Below, piece by piece: positions 713 through 54,900 of a stretch of DNA of 64,000 nt; the first letter of the stretch is position 1, and the number at the start of each line of letters is the position of its first letter. The notes beneath the pieces are model-generated. The model was not told where the DNA came from and made no database searches. It saw only the letters and a list, made by a program, of their open reading frames with translations. Location of the stretch: assembly GCF_055900595.2 (NCBI RefSeq), contig NZ_CM148325.1. One strand, 5' to 3'. The position numbers and the translations under genes were made by a program.

Positions 713-1914
713 GCGATCTCCTTAGCAGTCTGCGGTGCCGCACGGCGGAAGAAGCGTTTTTCCCAGCCGATAATCAACATCAGCGCAGTAAACAACAGCA
801 AATATGTCACCAGCAGGCCACCCATCGGGCCAAAGGTTTTCAGCAGGTTGATTTTGTCCCAGTCGGTGGCCAGCGCCGGAGCGAAATCATCCCAGTAATA
901 CGCCAGAATGGTTGAGCCGATCACATTGCCCAGACCGACCCACCAGTAGTGCACCTGACCTTCTACCGCGCGGTACATCCAACCGGTTTCGCAGCCGCCT
1001 GCCAGCACGATGCCAAAACCAAACAGTAAACCACCAATTACCGCGTTTGGTCCCGCCCACATGATTTTGGGTTCAACGCCTAACTGTACGTAACTGAAGA
1101 TCCCGATGGCACTCACCGCCATACCGATAATGATTGCTTTCGCCATATGGGTACGTCCGGTGATCCACATATCGCGGAACGCCGAAGTAAAGCAGATTTG
1201 CGCACGTTCAATCAGTAAACCAAAGCCGACGCCAAACAGCATTGCCAGCCCCAGTTTTGGTTGGTTCATCGCCGTGAGCAGCGCCCAGCCCAGCATACCG
1301 AAAAAGACCAGCATCCCGAGACGAAAACGACGCCGCGCCTGATCCGGTTTTTGCGTCAGCGGTGAGGCGGCAGAAACTTTCTGCATTTTCACGGGAATAC
1401 GGAAGATGGGCAGCAGGGTAAAGCGTGCGCCAAACCATGAACCAATGGCAGTGGCGATGGCAAAGAACCAGGCATGCAGCGAGAACTGAGGAATACCGGT
1501 AAAGAACGCCGCCAGGTTACAGCCCATTGCCAGACGCGCGCCAAAACCAGCGATAATACCGCCAATAATGGCCTGCATAATGCGGATACGGCTGCGTGGC
1601 ATGCGCAGTTTGACATTGTTGGCCCACAGCGCTGCGGCAAAGCAGCCGCCAAACATGCCGAGGATCATCATCCCGTCGATGCGGGTTAATGGCGATCCTT
1701 CCAGATGGATAATTTTAAAATAACCCCACTCTTCAGCATGGACGCCAAACAGCTGCAGGAGCTGGCCGCCCCAACGGGTAAATTCACCCGTGACAGCCCA
1801 AAAGGTGCCAGTAATGCCAAAATAGTAAGTGGAGAGAATACCCGCCGCGATGACCGCAGGGATGGGTGCCCAGAATTTAATCAACCAGGCGTGTTTGAAT
1901 TGCTGCCATGACAT
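709..1914 (-). CDS. yedE: YeeE/YedE family inner-membrane transporter (putative selenium/thiosulfate uptake)
   Basis: Track ORF 401 aa, highly hydrophobic; matches K-12 YedE length; 4-nt overlap with yedF. Confidence 0.88.
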   Translation of the reverse strand: MSWQQFKHAWLIKFWAPIPAVIAAGILSTYYFGITGTFWAVTGEFTRWGGQLLQLFGVHAEEWGYFKIIHLEGSPLTRIDGMMILGMFGGCFAAALWANNVKLRMPRSRIRIMQAIIGGIIAGFGARLAMGCNLAAFFTGIPQFSLHAWFFAIATAIGSWFGARFTLLPIFRIPVKMQKVSAASPLTQKPDQARRRFRLGMLVFFGMLGWALLTAMNQPKLGLAMLFGVGFGLLIERAQICFTSAFRDMWITGRTHMAKAIIIGMAVSAIGIFSYVQLGVEPKIMWAGPNAVIGGLLFGFGIVLAGGCETGWMYRAVEGQVHYWWVGLGNVIGSTILAYYWDDFAPALATDWDKINLLKTFGPMGGLLVTYLLLFTALMLIIGWEKRFFRRAAPQTAKEIA

Positions 1915-6315: not shown

Positions 6316-6353
6316 ACCTAATTCCTTTTGATTGCAAACAGTAGATAAGCGGG

Positions 6354-6380
6354 TTATCGGCAATTTGTGCGCAAAGTTTA
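6354..6380 (-). promoter_or_regulatory. sigma28 (FliA) class-3 promoter of fliDST
   Basis: Minus strand reads TAAACTTT-N11-GCCGATAA (consensus TAAAGTTT-N11-GCCGATAA), about 40 nt upstream of the fliD ATG. Confidence 0.8.
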
Positions 6381-6473
6381 ATAGTTGATTCACGAAGATG
6401 ATGCGCAGAGTAGAGTTGTATATTACGGATATTTCAGCCGTTAAGAAAAAACAGGAGAGAAACTAAAATTTTC

Positions 6474-6500
6474 TAAAGTTCGAAATTCAGGTGCCGATAC
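6474..6500 (+). promoter_or_regulatory. sigma28 (FliA) class-3 promoter of fliC
   Basis: TAAAGTTC-N11-GCCGATAC, about 70 nt upstream of the fliC ATG. Confidence 0.8.
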
Positions 6501-6569
6501 AAGGGGTACGGTGAGAAACCGTGGGCAACAGCCCAATAACATCAAGTTGTAATTGATAAGGAAAAGATC

Positions 6570-8144
6570 ATGGCACAAGTCATTAATACAAACAGCCTGT
6601 CGCTGTTGACCCAGAATAACCTGAACAAATCTCAGTCTTCTCTGAGCTCCGCCATTGAACGTCTCTCTTCTGGCCTGCGTATTAACAGTGCTAAAGATGA
6701 CGCAGCAGGTCAGGCGATTGCTAACCGTTTTACAGCAAATATTAAAGGTCTGACTCAGGCTTCCCGTAACGCGAATGATGGTATTTCTGTTGCGCAGACC
6801 ACTGAAGGTGCGCTTTCTGAAATCAACAATAACTTACAGCGTATTCGTGAATTGTCAGTACAGGCCACTAATGGTACAAACTCTGACTCCGACCTGAATT
6901 CAATTCAGGATGAAATTACACAACGCCTTAGTGAAATTGATCGTGTTTCTAACCAGACACAATTTAATGGTGTAAAAGTTCTGGCTTCTGATCAGACTAT
7001 GAAAATTCAAGTAGGTGCGAACGATGGTGAAACCATTGAGATTGCCCTTGATAAAATTGATGCTAAAACCTTGGGGCTTGATAACTTTAGCGTAGCACCA
7101 GGAAAAGTTCCAATGTCCTCTGCGGTTGCACTTAAGAGCGAAGCCGCTCCTGACTTAACTAAGGTAAATGCAACTGATGGTAGTGTGGGAGGTGCTAAAG
7201 CATTCGGTAGCAATTATAAAAATGCTGATGTTGAAACTTATTTTGGTACCGGTAATGTACAAGATACAAAGGATACAACTGATGCGACCGGTACTGCAGG
7301 AACAAAAGTTTATCAAGTACAGGTGGAAGGGCAGACTTATTTTGTTGGTCAAGATAATAATACCAACACGAACGGTTTTACATTATTGAAACAAAACTCT
7401 ACAGGTTATGAAAAAGTTCAGGTGGGTGGTAAGGATGTTCAGTTAGCAAACTTTGGTGGTCGTATAACTGCATTTGTTGAAGATAATGGTTCTGCCACAT
7501 CAGTTGATTTAGCTGCGGGTAAAATGGGTAAAGCATTAGCTTATAATGATGCACCAATGTCTGTTTATTTTGGGGGAAAAAACCTAGATGTCCACCAAGT
7601 ACAAGATACCCAAGGGAATCCTGTACCTAATTCATTTGCTGCTAAAACATCAGACGGCACCTACATTGCAGTAAATGTAGATGCCGCTACAGGTAACACG
7701 TCTGTTATTACTGATCCTAATGGTAAGGCAGTTGAATGGGCAGTAAAAAATGATGGTTCTGCACAGGCAATTATGCGTGAAGATGATAAGGTTTATACAG
7801 CCAATATCACGAATAAGACGGCAACCAAAGGTGCTGAACTCAGTGCCTCAGATTTGAAAGCCTTAGCAACCACAAATCCATTATCCAAATTAGACGAAGC
7901 TTTGGCAAAAGTTGATAAGTTGCGCAGTTCTTTGGGTGCAGTACAAAACCGTTTCGACTCTGCCATCACCAACCTTGGCAACACCGTAAACAACCTGTCT
8001 TCTGCCCGTAGCCGTATAGAAGATGCTGACTACGCAACCGAAGTGTCTAACATGTCTCGTGCGCAGATCCTGCAACAAGCGGGTACCTCTGTTCTGGCAC
8101 AGGCTAACCAGACCACGCAGAACGTACTGTCTCTGCTGCGTTAA
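6570..8144 (+). CDS. fliC: Flagellin FliC (H-antigen; 524 aa, not the K-12 H48 allele)
   Basis: Track ORF; conserved N-terminus [12 protein letters not shown]... and C-terminus ...QNVLSLLR; AT-rich hypervariable centre. Confidence 0.95.
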
Positions 8145-8163
8145 TTTACACTTATCGCTCAAA

Positions 8164-8186
8164 CCCCGCCACCGGCGGGGTTTTTT
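8164..8186 (+). terminator. Rho-independent terminator of fliC
   Basis: CCCCGCC-ACC-GGCGGGG hairpin followed by TTTTTT. Confidence 0.85.
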
Positions 8187-8275
8187 CTGCATGGAATTTA
8201 CCGGTAACCCCCAAATAACCCCTCATTTCACCCACTAATCGTCCGATTAAAAACCCTGCAGAAACGGATAATCAT

Positions 8276-8283
8276 GCCGATAA
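8276..8283 (+). promoter_or_regulatory. sigma28 -10 element (GCCGATAA) of the autoregulated fliA promoter
   Basis: Perfect -10 GCCGATAA 26 nt upstream of the fliA GTG; -35 at correct spacing is a poor match (TGCAGAAA), so only the -10 is called. Confidence 0.55.
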
Positions 8284-8308
8284 CTCATATAACGCAGGGC
8301 TGTTTATC

Positions 8309-9028
8309 GTGAATTCACTCTATACCGCTGAAGGTGTAATGGATAAACACTCGCTGTGGCAGCGTTATGTCCCGCTGGTGCGTCACGAAGCATTGCGCCT
8401 GCAGGTTCGACTGCCCGCGAGCGTGGAACTTGACGATCTGCTACAGGCGGGCGGCATTGGGTTACTTAATGCCGTCGAACGCTATGACGCCCTACAAGGA
8501 ACGGCATTTACAACTTACGCAGTGCAGCGTATCCGTGGCGCTATGCTGGATGAACTTCGCAGCCGTGACTGGGTGCCGCGCAGCGTGCGACGCAACGCGC
8601 GTGAAGTGGCACAGGCAATAGGGCAACTGGAGCAGGAACTTGGCCGCAACGCCACGGAAACTGAGGTAGCGGAACGTTTAGGGATCGATATTGCCGATTA
8701 TCGCCAAATGTTGCTCGACACCAATAACAGCCAGCTCTTCTCCTACGATGAGTGGCGCGAAGAGCACGGCGATAGCATCGAACTGGTTACTGATGATCAT
8801 CAGCGAGAAAACCCGCTACAACAACTGCTGGACAGTAATCTGCGCCAGCGAGTGATGGAAGCTATCGAAACGTTGCCGGAGCGCGAAAAACTGGTATTAA
8901 CCCTCTATTACCAGGAAGAGCTGAATCTCAAAGAGATTGGCGCGGTGCTGGAGGTCGGGGAATCGCGGGTCAGTCAGTTACACAGCCAGGCCATTAAACG
9001 GTTACGCACTAAACTGGGTAAGTTATAA
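8309..9028 (+). CDS. fliA: Flagellar sigma factor sigma28 (FliA/RpoF)
   Basis: Track ORF 239 aa, GTG start; full-length match to K-12 FliA as recalled. Confidence 0.95.
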   Translation: MNSLYTAEGVMDKHSLWQRYVPLVRHEALRLQVRLPASVELDDLLQAGGIGLLNAVERYDALQGTAFTTYAVQRIRGAMLDELRSRDWVPRSVRRNAREVAQAIGQLEQELGRNATETEVAERLGIDIADYRQMLLDTNNSQLFSYDEWREEHGDSIELVTDDHQRENPLQQLLDSNLRQRVMEAIETLPEREKLVLTLYYQEELNLKEIGAVLEVGESRVSQLHSQAIKRLRTKLGKL

Positions 9029-9073
9029 CGTCAGTAAATGCCGCACTTTAATTTTGACTACCAGGAGTTCTTA

Positions 9074-9625
9074 ATGATGGTGCAGCACCTGAAAAGACGG
9101 CCATTAAGCCGCTATCTTAAAGACTTTAAACACAGCCAGACCCATTGCGCGCATTGCCGTAAATTACTCGATCGCATTACCTTAGTTCGCGACGGCAAAA
9201 TAGTGAATAAAATCGAGATTTCCCGCCTGGACACGCTGCTTGATGAAAATGGCTGGCAAGTGGAACAACAATCATGGGCGGCATTGTGCCGATTTTGCGG
9301 TGATTTACATTGCAAAACGCAGAGTGATTTTTTCGATATTATCGGCTTTAAGCAATTTCTTTTTGAGCAAACTGAAATGAGCCCAGGTACGGTGCGTGAA
9401 TATGTCGTTCGTCTGCGCCGTTTGGGGAATCATCTACACGAGCAAAATATTTCCCTCGATCAGCTGCAGGACGGTTTCCTTGATGAAATCCTCGCCCCGT
9501 GGCTGCCCACCACCAGCACCAACAATTACCGCATCGCATTACGGAAGTATCAACACTATCAGCGTCAAACGTGTACCGGACTTGTGCAGAAATCCTCCAG
9601 CCTGCCTGCTTCTGATATATATTAA
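9074..9625 (+). CDS. fliZ: Regulator FliZ
   Basis: Track ORF 9038..9625 trimmed to ATG at 9074 (MMVQHLKRRP...) preceded by CAGGAG SD; matches K-12 FliZ. Confidence 0.9.
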   Translation: MMVQHLKRRPLSRYLKDFKHSQTHCAHCRKLLDRITLVRDGKIVNKIEISRLDTLLDENGWQVEQQSWAALCRFCGDLHCKTQSDFFDIIGFKQFLFEQTEMSPGTVREYVVRLRRLGNHLHEQNISLDQLQDGFLDEILAPWLPTTSTNNYRIALRKYQHYQRQTCTGLVQKSSSLPASDIY

Positions 9626-23969: not shown

Positions 23970-24959
23970 ATGCACAAATTTACTAAAGCCCTGGCAGCCA
24001 TTGGTCTGGCAGCCGTTATGTCACAATCCGCTATGGCGGAGAACCTGAAGCTCGGTTTTCTGGTGAAGCAACCGGAAGAGCCGTGGTTCCAGACCGAATG
24101 GAAGTTTGCCGATAAAGCCGGGAAGGATTTAGGGTTTGAGGTTATTAAGATTGCCGTGCCGGATGGCGAAAAAACATTGAACGCGATCGACAGCCTGGCT
24201 GCCAGTGGCGCAAAAGGTTTCGTTATTTGTACTCCGGACCCCAAACTCGGCTCTGCCATCGTCGCGAAAGCGCGTGGCTACGATATGAAAGTCATTGCCG
24301 TGGATGACCAGTTTGTTAACGCCAAAGGTAAGCCAATGGATACCGTTCCGCTGGTGATGATGGCGGCGACTAAAATTGGCGAACGTCAGGGCCAGGAACT
24401 GTATAAAGAGATGCAGAAACGTGGCTGGGATGTCAAAGAAAGCGCGGTGATGGCGATTACCGCCAACGAACTGGATACCGCCCGCCGCCGTACTACGGGA
24501 TCTATGGATGCGCTGAAAGCGGCCGGATTCCCGGAAAAACAAATTTATCAGGTACCTACCAAATCTAACGACATCCCGGGGGCATTTGACGCTGCCAACT
24601 CAATGCTGGTTCAACATCCGGAAGTTAAACATTGGCTGATCGTCGGTATGAACGACAGCACCGTGCTGGGCGGCGTACGCGCGACGGAAGGTCAGGGCTT
24701 TAAAGCGGCCGATATCATCGGCATTGGCATTAACGGTGTGGATGCGGTGAGCGAACTGTCTAAAGCACAGGCAACCGGCTTCTACGGTTCCCTGCTGCCA
24801 AGCCCGGACGTACATGGCTATAAATCCAGCGAAATGCTTTACAACTGGGTAGCAAAAGACGTTGAACCGCCAAAATTTACCGAAGTTACCGACGTGGTAC
24901 TGATCACGCGTGACAACTTTAAAGAAGAACTGGAGAAAAAAGGTTTAGGCGGTAAGTAA
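23970..24959 (+). CDS. araF: L-arabinose ABC transporter periplasmic binding protein AraF
   Basis: Track ORF 23919..24959 trimmed to ATG 23970 (MHKFTKALAAIGLAAVMSQSAMA signal peptide) with GGAGAG SD; matches K-12 AraF (329 aa). Confidence 0.95.
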   Translation: MHKFTKALAAIGLAAVMSQSAMAENLKLGFLVKQPEEPWFQTEWKFADKAGKDLGFEVIKIAVPDGEKTLNAIDSLAASGAKGFVICTPDPKLGSAIVAKARGYDMKVIAVDDQFVNAKGKPMDTVPLVMMAATKIGERQGQELYKEMQKRGWDVKESAVMAITANELDTARRRTTGSMDALKAAGFPEKQIYQVPTKSNDIPGAFDAANSMLVQHPEVKHWLIVGMNDSTVLGGVRATEGQGFKAADIIGIGINGVDAVSELSKAQATGFYGSLLPSPDVHGYKSSEMLYNWVAKDVEPPKFTEVTDVVLITRDNFKEELEKKGLGGK

Positions 24960-26557: not shown

Positions 26558-29910
<3,353 letters not shown>

Positions 29911-31477: not shown

Positions 31478-32056
31478 ATGAGTGAAAAAAGCATTGTTCA
31501 GGAAGCGCGGGATATTCAGCTGGCAATGGAATTGATCACCCTGGGCGCTCGTTTGCAGATGCTGGAAAGCGAAACACAGTTAAGTCGCGGACGCCTGATA
31601 AAACTTTATAAAGAACTGCGCGGAAGCCCACCGCCGAAAGGCATGCTGCCATTCTCAACCGACTGGTTTATGACCTGGGAACAAAACGTTCATGCTTCGA
31701 TGTTCTGTAATGCATGGCAGTTTTTACTGAAAACCGGTTTGTGTAATGGCGTCGATGCGGTGATCAAAGCCTACCGTTTATACCTTGAACAGTGCCCACA
31801 AGCAGAAGAAGGACCACTGCTGGCATTAACTCGTGCCTGGACATTGGTGCGGTTTGTTGAAAGTGGATTACTGCAACTTTCCAGCTGCAACTGCTGCGGC
31901 GGCAATTTTATTACCCACGCTCACCAGCCTGTTGGCAGCTTTGCCTGCAGCTTATGTCAACCGCCATCCAGGGCAGTAAAAAGACGTAAACTTTCCCAGA
32001 ATCCTGCCGATATTATCCCACAACTGCTGGATGAACAGAGAGTACAGGCTGTTTAA
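31478..32056 (+). CDS. flhC: Flagellar master regulator subunit FlhC
   Basis: Track ORF 192 aa; zinc-binding cysteines (CNCCGG...CSLC); matches K-12 FlhC. Confidence 0.95.
31987..32013 (+). promoter_or_regulatory. sigma28 promoter of motAB-cheAW, located inside the flhC 3' coding region
   Basis: TAAACTTT-N11-GCCGATAT, about 170 nt upstream of the motA GTG and 43 nt before the flhC stop. Confidence 0.75.
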
Positions 32057-35982: not shown

Positions 35983-36486
35983 ATGACCGGTATGACGAAT
36001 GTAACAAAGCTGGCCAGCGAGCCGTCAGGCCAGGAATTTCTGGTATTTACCCTTGGTGATGAAGAGTACGGTATTGATATCCTGAAAGTGCAGGAGATCC
36101 GTGGCTACGATCAGGTAACACGGATTGCGAACACGCCAGCGTTTATCAAAGGCGTCACGAATCTGCGCGGCGTTATTGTGCCGATTGTTGACTTACGAAT
36201 TAAGTTCAGCCAGGTGGATGTGGACTATAACGACAACACGGTAGTTATCGTCCTGAATCTCGGACAGCGGGTGGTCGGCATCGTGGTTGACGGCGTCTCA
36301 GACGTGCTTTCATTGACGGCGGAGCAAATTCGTCCGGCACCGGAATTTGCCGTGACGCTTTCAACAGAATATCTCACTGGACTGGGCGCACTGGGCGACC
36401 GGATGTTGATTCTGGTGAACATCGAAAAACTGCTGAACAGCGAAGAGATGGCGCTGTTAGATAGCGCGGCGTCAGAAGTGGCGTAA
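35983..36486 (+). CDS. cheW: Chemotaxis coupling protein CheW
   Basis: Track ORF 167 aa; matches K-12 CheW. Confidence 0.95.
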
Positions 36487-36513
36487 TTCTCCCGATTTCC
36501 TCAATTGAAATGA

Positions 36514-36542
36514 ACCCGATGATCTGCGCATCGGGTTTTTTA
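36514..36542 (+). terminator. Rho-independent terminator of motAB-cheAW
   Basis: ACCCGATG...CATCGGGT hairpin followed by TTTTTT. Confidence 0.85.
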
Positions 36543-36572
36543 TTTCAATTTCGCGGCGGGTGGCATCAGCAA

Positions 36573-36599
36573 TAAAGTTTCCCCCCTCCTTGCCGATAA
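36573..36599 (+). promoter_or_regulatory. sigma28 promoter of tar-tap-cheRBYZ
   Basis: TAAAGTTT-N11-GCCGATAA, an exact match to the sigma28 consensus, about 30 nt upstream of the tar ATG. Confidence 0.9.
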
Positions 36600-36630
36600 C
36601 GAGATCAACTTGTTTTCAGGAAGGTGCCTT

Positions 36631-38292
36631 ATGATTAACCGTATCCGCGTAGTCACGCTGTTGGTAATGGTGCTGGGGGTATTCGCACTGTTACAGCTTA
36701 TTTCCGGCAGTCTGTTTTTTTCTTCCCTTCACCATAGCCAGAAGAGCTTTGTGGTTTCCAATCAATTACGGGAACAGCAGGGCGAGCTGACGTCAACCTG
36801 GGATTTAATGCTGCAAACGCGCATTAACCTGAGTCGTTCAGCGGTACGGATGATGATGGATTCCTCCAATCAACAAAGTAACGCCAAAGTTGAATTGCTC
36901 GATAGCGCCAGGAAAACATTGGCGCAGGCAGCGACGCATTATAAAAAATTCAAAAGCATGGCACCGTTACCTGAAATGGTCGCTACCAGTCGTAATATTG
37001 ATGAAAAATATAAAAACTATTACACAGCGTTAACTGAACTGATTGATTATCTAGATTATGGCAATACTGGAGCTTATTTCGCTCAGCCAACCCAGGGAAT
37101 GCAAAATGCAATGGGCGAAGCGTTTGCTCAGTACGCCCTCAGCAGTGAAAAACTGTATCGCGATATCGTCACTGACAACGCAGATGATTACCGATTTGCC
37201 CAGTGGCAACTGGCGGTTATCGCGCTGGTGGTGGTATTGATTCTGCTGGTGGCGTGGTACGGCATTCGCCGTATGTTGCTTACTCCGCTGGCAAAAATTA
37301 TTGCTCACATTCGCGAAATCGCCGGTGGTAACCTGGCGAATACCCTGACCATTGACGGGCGCAGTGAAATGGGCGACCTGGCGCAGAGCGTTTCACATAT
37401 GCAACGCTCTTTGACTGACACCGTCACTCATGTCCGCGAAGGTTCAGATGCCATCTATGCCGGTACCCGTGAAATTGCGGCGGGCAACACCGATCTTTCC
37501 TCCCGTACTGAACAGCAGGCATCCGCGCTGGAAGAAACTGCCGCCAGCATGGAGCAGCTCACCGCGACAGTGAAGCAAAACGCCGATAACGCCCGCCAGG
37601 CCTCGCAACTGGCGCAAAGTGCCTCCGACACCGCCCAGCACGGCGGCAAAGTGGTGGATGGCGTAGTGAAAACGATGCATGAGATCGCCGATAGTTCGAA
37701 GAAAATTGCCGACATTATCAGCGTTATCGACGGTATTGCCTTCCAGACTAATATCCTCGCGCTGAATGCCGCGGTTGAAGCCGCGCGTGCGGGTGAACAG
37801 GGCCGTGGTTTTGCCGTGGTGGCGGGTGAAGTGCGTAATCTTGCCAGTCGCAGCGCCCAGGCGGCAAAAGAGATCAAAGCCCTCATTGAAGACTCCGTCT
37901 CACGCGTTGATACCGGTTCGGTGCTGGTCGAAAGCGCCGGGGAAACAATGAACAATATCGTCAATGCTGTCACTCGCGTGACTGACATTATGGGCGAGAT
38001 TGCATCGGCATCGGATGAACAGAGCCGTGGCATCGATCAAGTCGCATTGGCGGTTTCGGAAATGGATCGCGTCACGCAACAGAACGCATCGCTGGTGCAG
38101 GAATCAGCTGCCGCCGCCGCTGCGCTGGAAGAACAGGCGAGTCGTTTAACGCAAGCGGTTTCCGCGTTCCGTCTGGCAGCCAGCCCACTCACCAATAAAC
38201 CGCAAACACCATCCCGTCCTGCCAGTGAGCAACCACCGGCACAGCCACGACTGCGAATTGCTGAACAAGATCCAAACTGGGAAACATTTTGA
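36631..38292 (+). CDS. tar: Methyl-accepting chemotaxis protein II (Tar, aspartate/maltose)
   Basis: Track ORF 36610..38292 trimmed to ATG 36631 ([11 protein letters not shown]...); C-terminal NWETF pentapeptide; matches K-12 Tar (553 aa). Confidence 0.95.
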
Positions 38293-50046: not shown

Positions 50047-50802
<756 letters not shown>

Positions 50803-50847
50803 TTTTTACCGTTGCATCATGTCGCCCAATATGATGCTTGCTCGTAC

Positions 50848-50881
50848 CAGGCCCCTGCAATTTCAACAGGGGCCTTTTTTT
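50848..50881 (+). terminator. Rho-independent terminator of yecM-cutC
   Basis: AGGCCCCTG...CAGGGGCCT hairpin followed by TTTTTTT. Confidence 0.85.
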
Positions 50882-54802: not shown

Positions 54803-54900
54803 GCCGGATGCGACGTGAACGCCTTATCCGGCCTACAAAATTGTGCAAATTCAATATATTGCAGGAGATGAGTAGGCCTGATAAGCGTAGCGCATCAGGC
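54803..54900. repeat. REP pair (BIME) between torZ and cmoB
   Basis: GCCGGATGCGACGTGAACGCCTTATCCGGCCTAC (54803-54836) and inverted GTAGGCCTGATAAGCGTAGCGCATCAGGC (54872-54900). Confidence 0.75.

Follow-up and report, generated by a model that had tools for sequence, protein, structure and literature searches.

An exact-consensus sigma-28 site between cheW and tar of Escherichia coli corresponds to the documented flagellar promoter Ptar

Does a perfect match to the sigma-28 consensus directly upstream of a chemoreceptor gene represent a functional promoter, and is such a promoter already known? The question is raised by positions 36573-36599 (+) of a stretch of DNA of 64,000 nucleotides, referred to here as the window. 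The window is part of the E. coli chromosome, and megablast against complete E. coli genomes aligned tar and the genes around it at 100% identity. According to the RefSeq annotation of a colinear genome, the window starts with two minus-strand units, amyA and fliT-fliS-fliD, which are followed by fliC (6571-8145), fliA, fliZ and tcyJ. Its middle part contains sdiA, uvrYC and three tRNAs and, further on, otsBA, uspC, flhDC, motAB and cheAW. It ends with tar, tap, cheRBYZ, flhBAE and argS, later cutC, and finally aspS and ruvC. This gene order identifies flagellar region II/IIIa of E. coli in an orientation opposite to that of the K-12 map.

The junction between cheW and tar comprises the following features:

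36512-36545 (+): intrinsic terminator of motAB-cheAW, hairpin plus T-run, found by terminator scan
36573-36580 (+): tar -35 octamer TAAAGTTT, promoter positions -34 to -27
36581-36591 (+): C-rich spacer of 11 nt, CCCCCCTCCTT
36592-36599 (+): tar -10 octamer GCCGATAA, a 'GC' extended -10 motif plus the core -10, promoter positions -15 to -8
36631-38292 (+): tar coding sequence, first gene of tar-tap-cheRBYZ, according to the RefSeq annotation of colinear genomes

The original prediction, made from the letters of the window, described this site as an exact sigma-28 consensus at every position. Direct reading bears this out: 16 of 16 positions match with N11 spacing, and the coordinates are exact. 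TAAAGTTT-N11-GCCGATAA is the sigma-28 consensus published by Koo et al. 2009, in the form in which Hollands et al. cite it (PMC2859248). The tar ATG at 36631 lies on the same strand, 32 nt from the end of the -10 octamer at 36599. The open reading frame opens with MINRIRVV and is preceded by the Shine-Dalgarno sequence GGAAGG at 36619-36624. By orientation and position the promoter faces tar-tap-cheRBYZ, with the chemotaxis genes directly 3' of it. With a probability of about 97%, we identify 36573-36599 as Ptar (tarp), a flagellar promoter of class 3 that serves the tar-tap-cheRBYZ ('meche') operon of E. coli, and found no evidence against this identity. The tar exact-consensus promoter is already known and fully documented.

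The surroundings of Ptar in the window include the gene of its cognate sigma factor and further FliA sites:

6354-6380 (-): fliD (fliDST) sigma-28 promoter, TAAACTTT-N11-GCCGATAA, 1 mismatch, position homologous to MG1655
6474-6500 (+): fliC sigma-28 promoter, TAAAGTTC-N11-GCCGATAC, position homologous to MG1655
8257-8284 (+): fliA (fliAZ) sigma-28 promoter, TGCAGAAA-N11-GCCGATAA, with the MG1655-identical 28-mer TGCAGAAACGGATAATCATGCCGATAAC
8310-9029 (+): fliA gene, encoding sigma-28
28755-28781 (-): weak FliA site antisense in otsA, TGAAATTG-N11-GCCGATAA, identical to the MG1655 site
31987-32013 (+): motA (motAB-cheAW / MotR sRNA) sigma-28 promoter, TAAACTTT-N11-GCCGATAT

A scan of the 64-kb window with the consensus TAAAGTTT-N11-GCCGATAA, allowing up to 3 mismatches, returned five sites versus 0.55 expected, a number reached in none of 100 shuffles. 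Mismatches rise from 0 at tar through 1 at fliD and 2 each at fliC and motA to 3 at the otsA-antisense site. A scan with a sigma-28 matrix, the check proposed together with the original prediction, was run on both strands. The position weight matrix was derived from 43 published FliA sites, all located beyond the window; the six sites of the window and three others that their authors had flagged as doubtful were left out. Tar came first with 23.16 of the possible 23.31 bits, followed by fliD (22.06), motA (20.98), fliC (19.53) and the otsA-antisense site (17.23); fliA scored 15.65 bits. The best score in random sequence was 14.78 +/- 1.83 on average. Two further candidates combine a perfect GCCGATAA with a poor -35: 747-774 (+) lies antisense in yedE and scores 15.88 bits, and 9338-9365 (-) lies antisense in fliZ and reaches 14.93 bits. 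Both scores are inside the range of random maxima, and both candidates are probably chance matches. The fliZ-antisense sequence is identical in MG1655, for which Fitzgerald et al. 2014 (PMC4183435) report no FliA peak at this place.

Concerning the other members of the set, the sites named for fliD, fliC, motA and fliA are all real, being published and experimentally mapped FliA promoters. The claim of four target promoters plus a fliA site thus holds for every member, but the set was not complete, since the sixth, weak FliA site in otsA had been missed. Two details are corrected. The -10 of fliC, GCCGATAC, is one mismatch away from the consensus, and the motA promoter is intragenic, not intergenic. 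It lies within the 3' end of flhC (stop codon at about 32056), and its -10 overlaps FlhC Ala177-Asp178; the literature describes it as the FliA promoter of highest conservation, which constrains these two residues.

At fliA the -10 is perfect and the -35 weak, as had been predicted; the -35 matches at 3 of 8 positions, and 26 nt separate the end of the -10 from the GTG at 8310. Owing to this weak -35, the 15.65 bits of the fliA site fall into the range of random maxima. The site is thus not identifiable from sequence alone, and its status as a sigma-28 promoter rests on published ChIP-seq. The weak -35 had also been tentatively linked to dual class-2/class-3 control, in agreement with the literature, where fliAZY counts as a complex promoter of classes 2 and 3.

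The fliD-fliC intergenic region (6317-6570) is substantially diverged from MG1655, which fits a different flagellin allele (fliC of 524 aa). Despite the diverged surroundings, the sigma-28 boxes of fliD and fliC are islands of identity at MG1655-homologous positions. The -10 elements of fliD and fliC read GCCGATAA and GCCGATAC here, as compared to ACCGATAA and GACGATAA in MG1655, and both are nearer to the consensus in the window. A side observation concerns the other end of fliC. Its 3' UTR (8143-8190 (+)) is short, about 45 nt, with the stop codon followed by the terminator hairpin. Its MG1655 counterpart (L128:1913-2107) has a length of about 190 nt, includes REP-like repeats and carries the annotation FliX sRNA. 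The two have the terminator in common and nothing else, so the strain studied here lacks most of FliX.

What is known about Ptar comes from work on E. coli K-12. Fitzgerald, Bonocora & Wade 2014 list 52 FliA ChIP-seq sites of MG1655 with their 28-mers (Table 2, PMC4183435). Four sites of the window, tar, motA, fliA and otsA-antisense, are identical to entries of this table over the entire 28-mer, and tar is the only zero-mismatch site among the 52. In MG1655, tar has a ChIP fold-above-threshold score of 57, and deletion of fliA lowers its expression from 251 to 0; the scores of motA, fliA and otsA are 101, 91 and 2, respectively (PMC4183435). Moreover, tar/tap/cheRBYZ is counted among eight well-characterised sigma-28 promoters (PMC2859248). 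On the strength of this literature on the identical MG1655 sequence, Ptar in the window would likewise be bound by FliA and depend on it.

The position of the transcription start can be derived from structural work. Cryo-EM structures of the E. coli sigma-28 initiation complex have been built on the tar promoter from -39 to +15, and ATP plus CTP on this tarp scaffold yielded the transcript AAC from +1 (preprint 10.1101/2020.01.02.893370). In the same work, residues K74 and K87 of the beta' zinc-binding domain contact the non-template bases -26C/-25C of tarp. The scaffold numbering fits only the AAC at 36607-36609 in the window. From this numbering, rather than from a transcription-start table, we infer that tar +1 is A36607; -26C/-25C then correspond to C36581/C36582, the first two bases of the spacer. 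The start so placed lies 8 nt beyond 36599, where a distance of 5-10 nt had been named beforehand as the test of the original prediction, and leaves a 5' UTR of 24 nt. It is also consistent with dRNA-seq starts at well-characterised FliA promoters, which are found 18-22 nt from the motif centre (re-analysis, bioRxiv 10.1101/188474).

Conservation was considered within the species and beyond. Of 5426 complete E. coli genomes, 5373 contain the 201-bp cheW-tar junction with a coverage of at least 80%; the matching regions are all at least 95% identical. Both octamers are unchanged in the three E. coli alleles of greatest divergence that were examined, which vary in the spacer (C to T at base six), in the tail of the terminator and in the flanks. 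As a separate observation, an IS1-bounded deletion in E. coli MB50 (L007, NZ_CP073949.1 1901285-1904344) fuses uspC to the tar start region. The deletion removes flhDC, motAB, cheAW and the tar promoter, and the strain is thus presumably non-motile.

Beyond E. coli, an exact-consensus pattern scan of one-genome-per-species contigs returned at least 120 loci, an arbitrary sample which is no census and gives no frequencies. Among the 120 matches listed, 86 have an open reading frame of at least 80 aa directly downstream; the commonest families encoded by these 86 are FlgM (18), chemoreceptors (5), flagellin (5), FliD (3) and FlaG (2). Three of the five downstream chemoreceptors among the matches listed carry a Tar ligand-binding domain. 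Enterobacterales are represented among the matches listed by Photorhabdus caribbeanensis, Acerihabitans arboris and 'Klebsiella sp. BIGb0407'. In all three, the exact consensus is located between a cheW ortholog (80-91% amino acid identity) and a gene for a Tar-like receptor (54-61%), and the spacers and non-coding flanks show no relationship to their E. coli counterparts. Since the octamers are kept while spacers and flanks are unrelated, the comparison provides a clean phylogenetic footprint of both octamers. Aside from this, several exact consensus sites per genome were seen among the matches listed in metagenome-assembled genomes (MAGs) of Gastranaerophilales/Melainabacteria and other uncultured bacteria (L016-L021, L032-L038, L044-L047, L056-L057, L069-L074 and others). 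Many of these MAG sites lie upstream of open reading frames outside the common flagellar Pfam families, e.g. EF-hand-containing and large repetitive proteins.

Two other readings of the tar site have to be weighed against Ptar. The match might have arisen by chance or from base composition and have no promoter function, deriving for example from common GCC-GAT-AAN (Ala-Asp-Lys/Asn) codons. The abundance of the -10 octamer would suit this reading: GCCGATAA occurs 11 times in the window versus 2.46 expected, and three copies, at araF 24108, tar 37582 and tap 39283, are ordinary Ala-Asp-Lys/Asn codons read in frame and lack a -35 box, those in tar and tap forming a paralogous 'QNADN' motif. Four of the 11 copies, however, are FliA sites. 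The tar site is intergenic, hence codon usage cannot explain it, and its perfect -35 at the exact N11 spacing is expected only 3e-5 times in the window from base composition. The MG1655 site is FliA-bound and FliA-dependent (PMC4183435), and the site is conserved across genera whereas spacer and flanks are not. Since the identical sequence is already covered by published ChIP-seq, RNA-seq and in vitro transcription, we consider a chance origin refuted, with a probability close to nil. The opposite idea, that the excess of GCCGATAA marks extra hidden promoters, is rejected for the copies at 24108, 37582 and 39283, which are codons and have no -35.

The other reading accepts the site but makes it auxiliary: tar would be expressed mostly by read-through from the motA promoter, in a single motAB-cheAW-tar unit, or from a sigma-70 promoter. 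The genes are indeed co-oriented and merely 144 nt apart, cheW ending at 36486. Moreover, both operons belong to one regulon, so that the disappearance of tar mRNA upon deletion of fliA could not on its own tell the two promoters apart. Against read-through stands the strong intrinsic terminator between cheW and the -35 box. It folds with -18.1 kcal/mol (z = -4.74; 0 of 200 shuffles equally stable) and ends about 28 nt upstream of the -35 box of tar. Given this position, tar expression should depend on Ptar, not on read-through. There is, furthermore, a separate FliA ChIP-seq peak at tar (score 57; PMC4183435), and the tar promoter fragment, when isolated, works with sigma-28 RNA polymerase in vitro as well as in reporter fusions (10.1101/2020.01.02.893370). 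As to the sigma-70 variant, no sigma-70-like promoter was found on the plus strand in 36300-36750. An auxiliary role of the site is hence very improbable, if slightly less so than a chance match.

The preferred reading, Ptar as the promoter of tar-tap-cheRBYZ, suggests the following mechanism. Sigma-28, encoded by fliA in the same window, would direct RNA polymerase to both tar octamers, with sigma domain 4 reading the -35 element TAAAGTTT and sigma domains 2 and 3 reading the composite -10 element GCCGATAA. Transcription would start at about A36607. Transcripts of motAB-cheAW would end at the terminator at 36512-36545, and the tar operon would then rely on Ptar and hence on free FliA. As is well established for the flagellar cascade, FliA is freed only once the anti-sigma factor FlgM is exported via the completed hook-basal body.

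The terminator region also contains a candidate small RNA. On the minus strand, 36506-36583 matches the Rfam family of candidate sRNA C0465 over its full length (111.6 bits). The candidate is antisense to the cheW terminator and has an 11-nt overlap with the tar -35 box; an obvious sigma-70 promoter for it was not seen. Its presence does not conflict with the promoter function of Ptar. Two further Rfam matches in the window, to MicL sRNA at 50574-50881 (+) (370 bits) and to ES036/CssrF sRNA at 54837-54879 (+), are known features unrelated to the promoters.

Two speculative ideas, both based on sequence and regarded by us as unlikely, follow from these observations. One is that selection may keep the consensus of the tar operon perfect across Enterobacterales, as suggested by the 16/16 matches that four genera have between cheW and the receptor gene, with spacers that are unrelated. 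If true, the chemoreceptor operon would be more sensitive than any other class 3 unit to low levels of free FliA. The other, separate idea is that C0465 might modulate the promoter or the cheW terminator, which would be based on the overlap of the candidate (36506-36583 (-)) with the -35 box.

The discovery value of the locus itself is little. ChIP-seq and RNA-seq already map the flagellar regulon of the region comprehensively, and Ptar is the reference sigma-28 promoter in mutational, biochemical and cryo-EM work. Its value is that of a positive control: raw sequence, read with no tools, was enough to locate five genuine sigma-28 promoters together with the gene of the sigma factor.

In comparison with known systems, the locus is closest to tarp of E. 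coli K-12. The tar 28-mer TAAAGTTTCCCCCCTCCTTGCCGATAAC is identical in both, as are the position between cheW terminator and tar and the downstream operon. The strain studied here differs from K-12 in the fliC allele, the fliD-fliC intergenic region and the fliC 3' UTR, whereas the tar promoter shows no difference. The motA promoter, whose 28-mer is likewise identical to MG1655, shares the sigma factor and the window with tar; it is intragenic and has 2 mismatches, whereas the tar promoter is intergenic. In the open complex of Pseudomonas aeruginosa sigma-28, the -10 octamer is also numbered -15 to -8 (PMC12784957), and the tar -10 octamer is thus placed as in solved sigma-28 open complexes. 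Within the sigma-28 (FliA/SigD) class, most natural members deviate from the consensus at 1-4 positions, whereas tar matches it at all 16 and has the 11-nt spacing.
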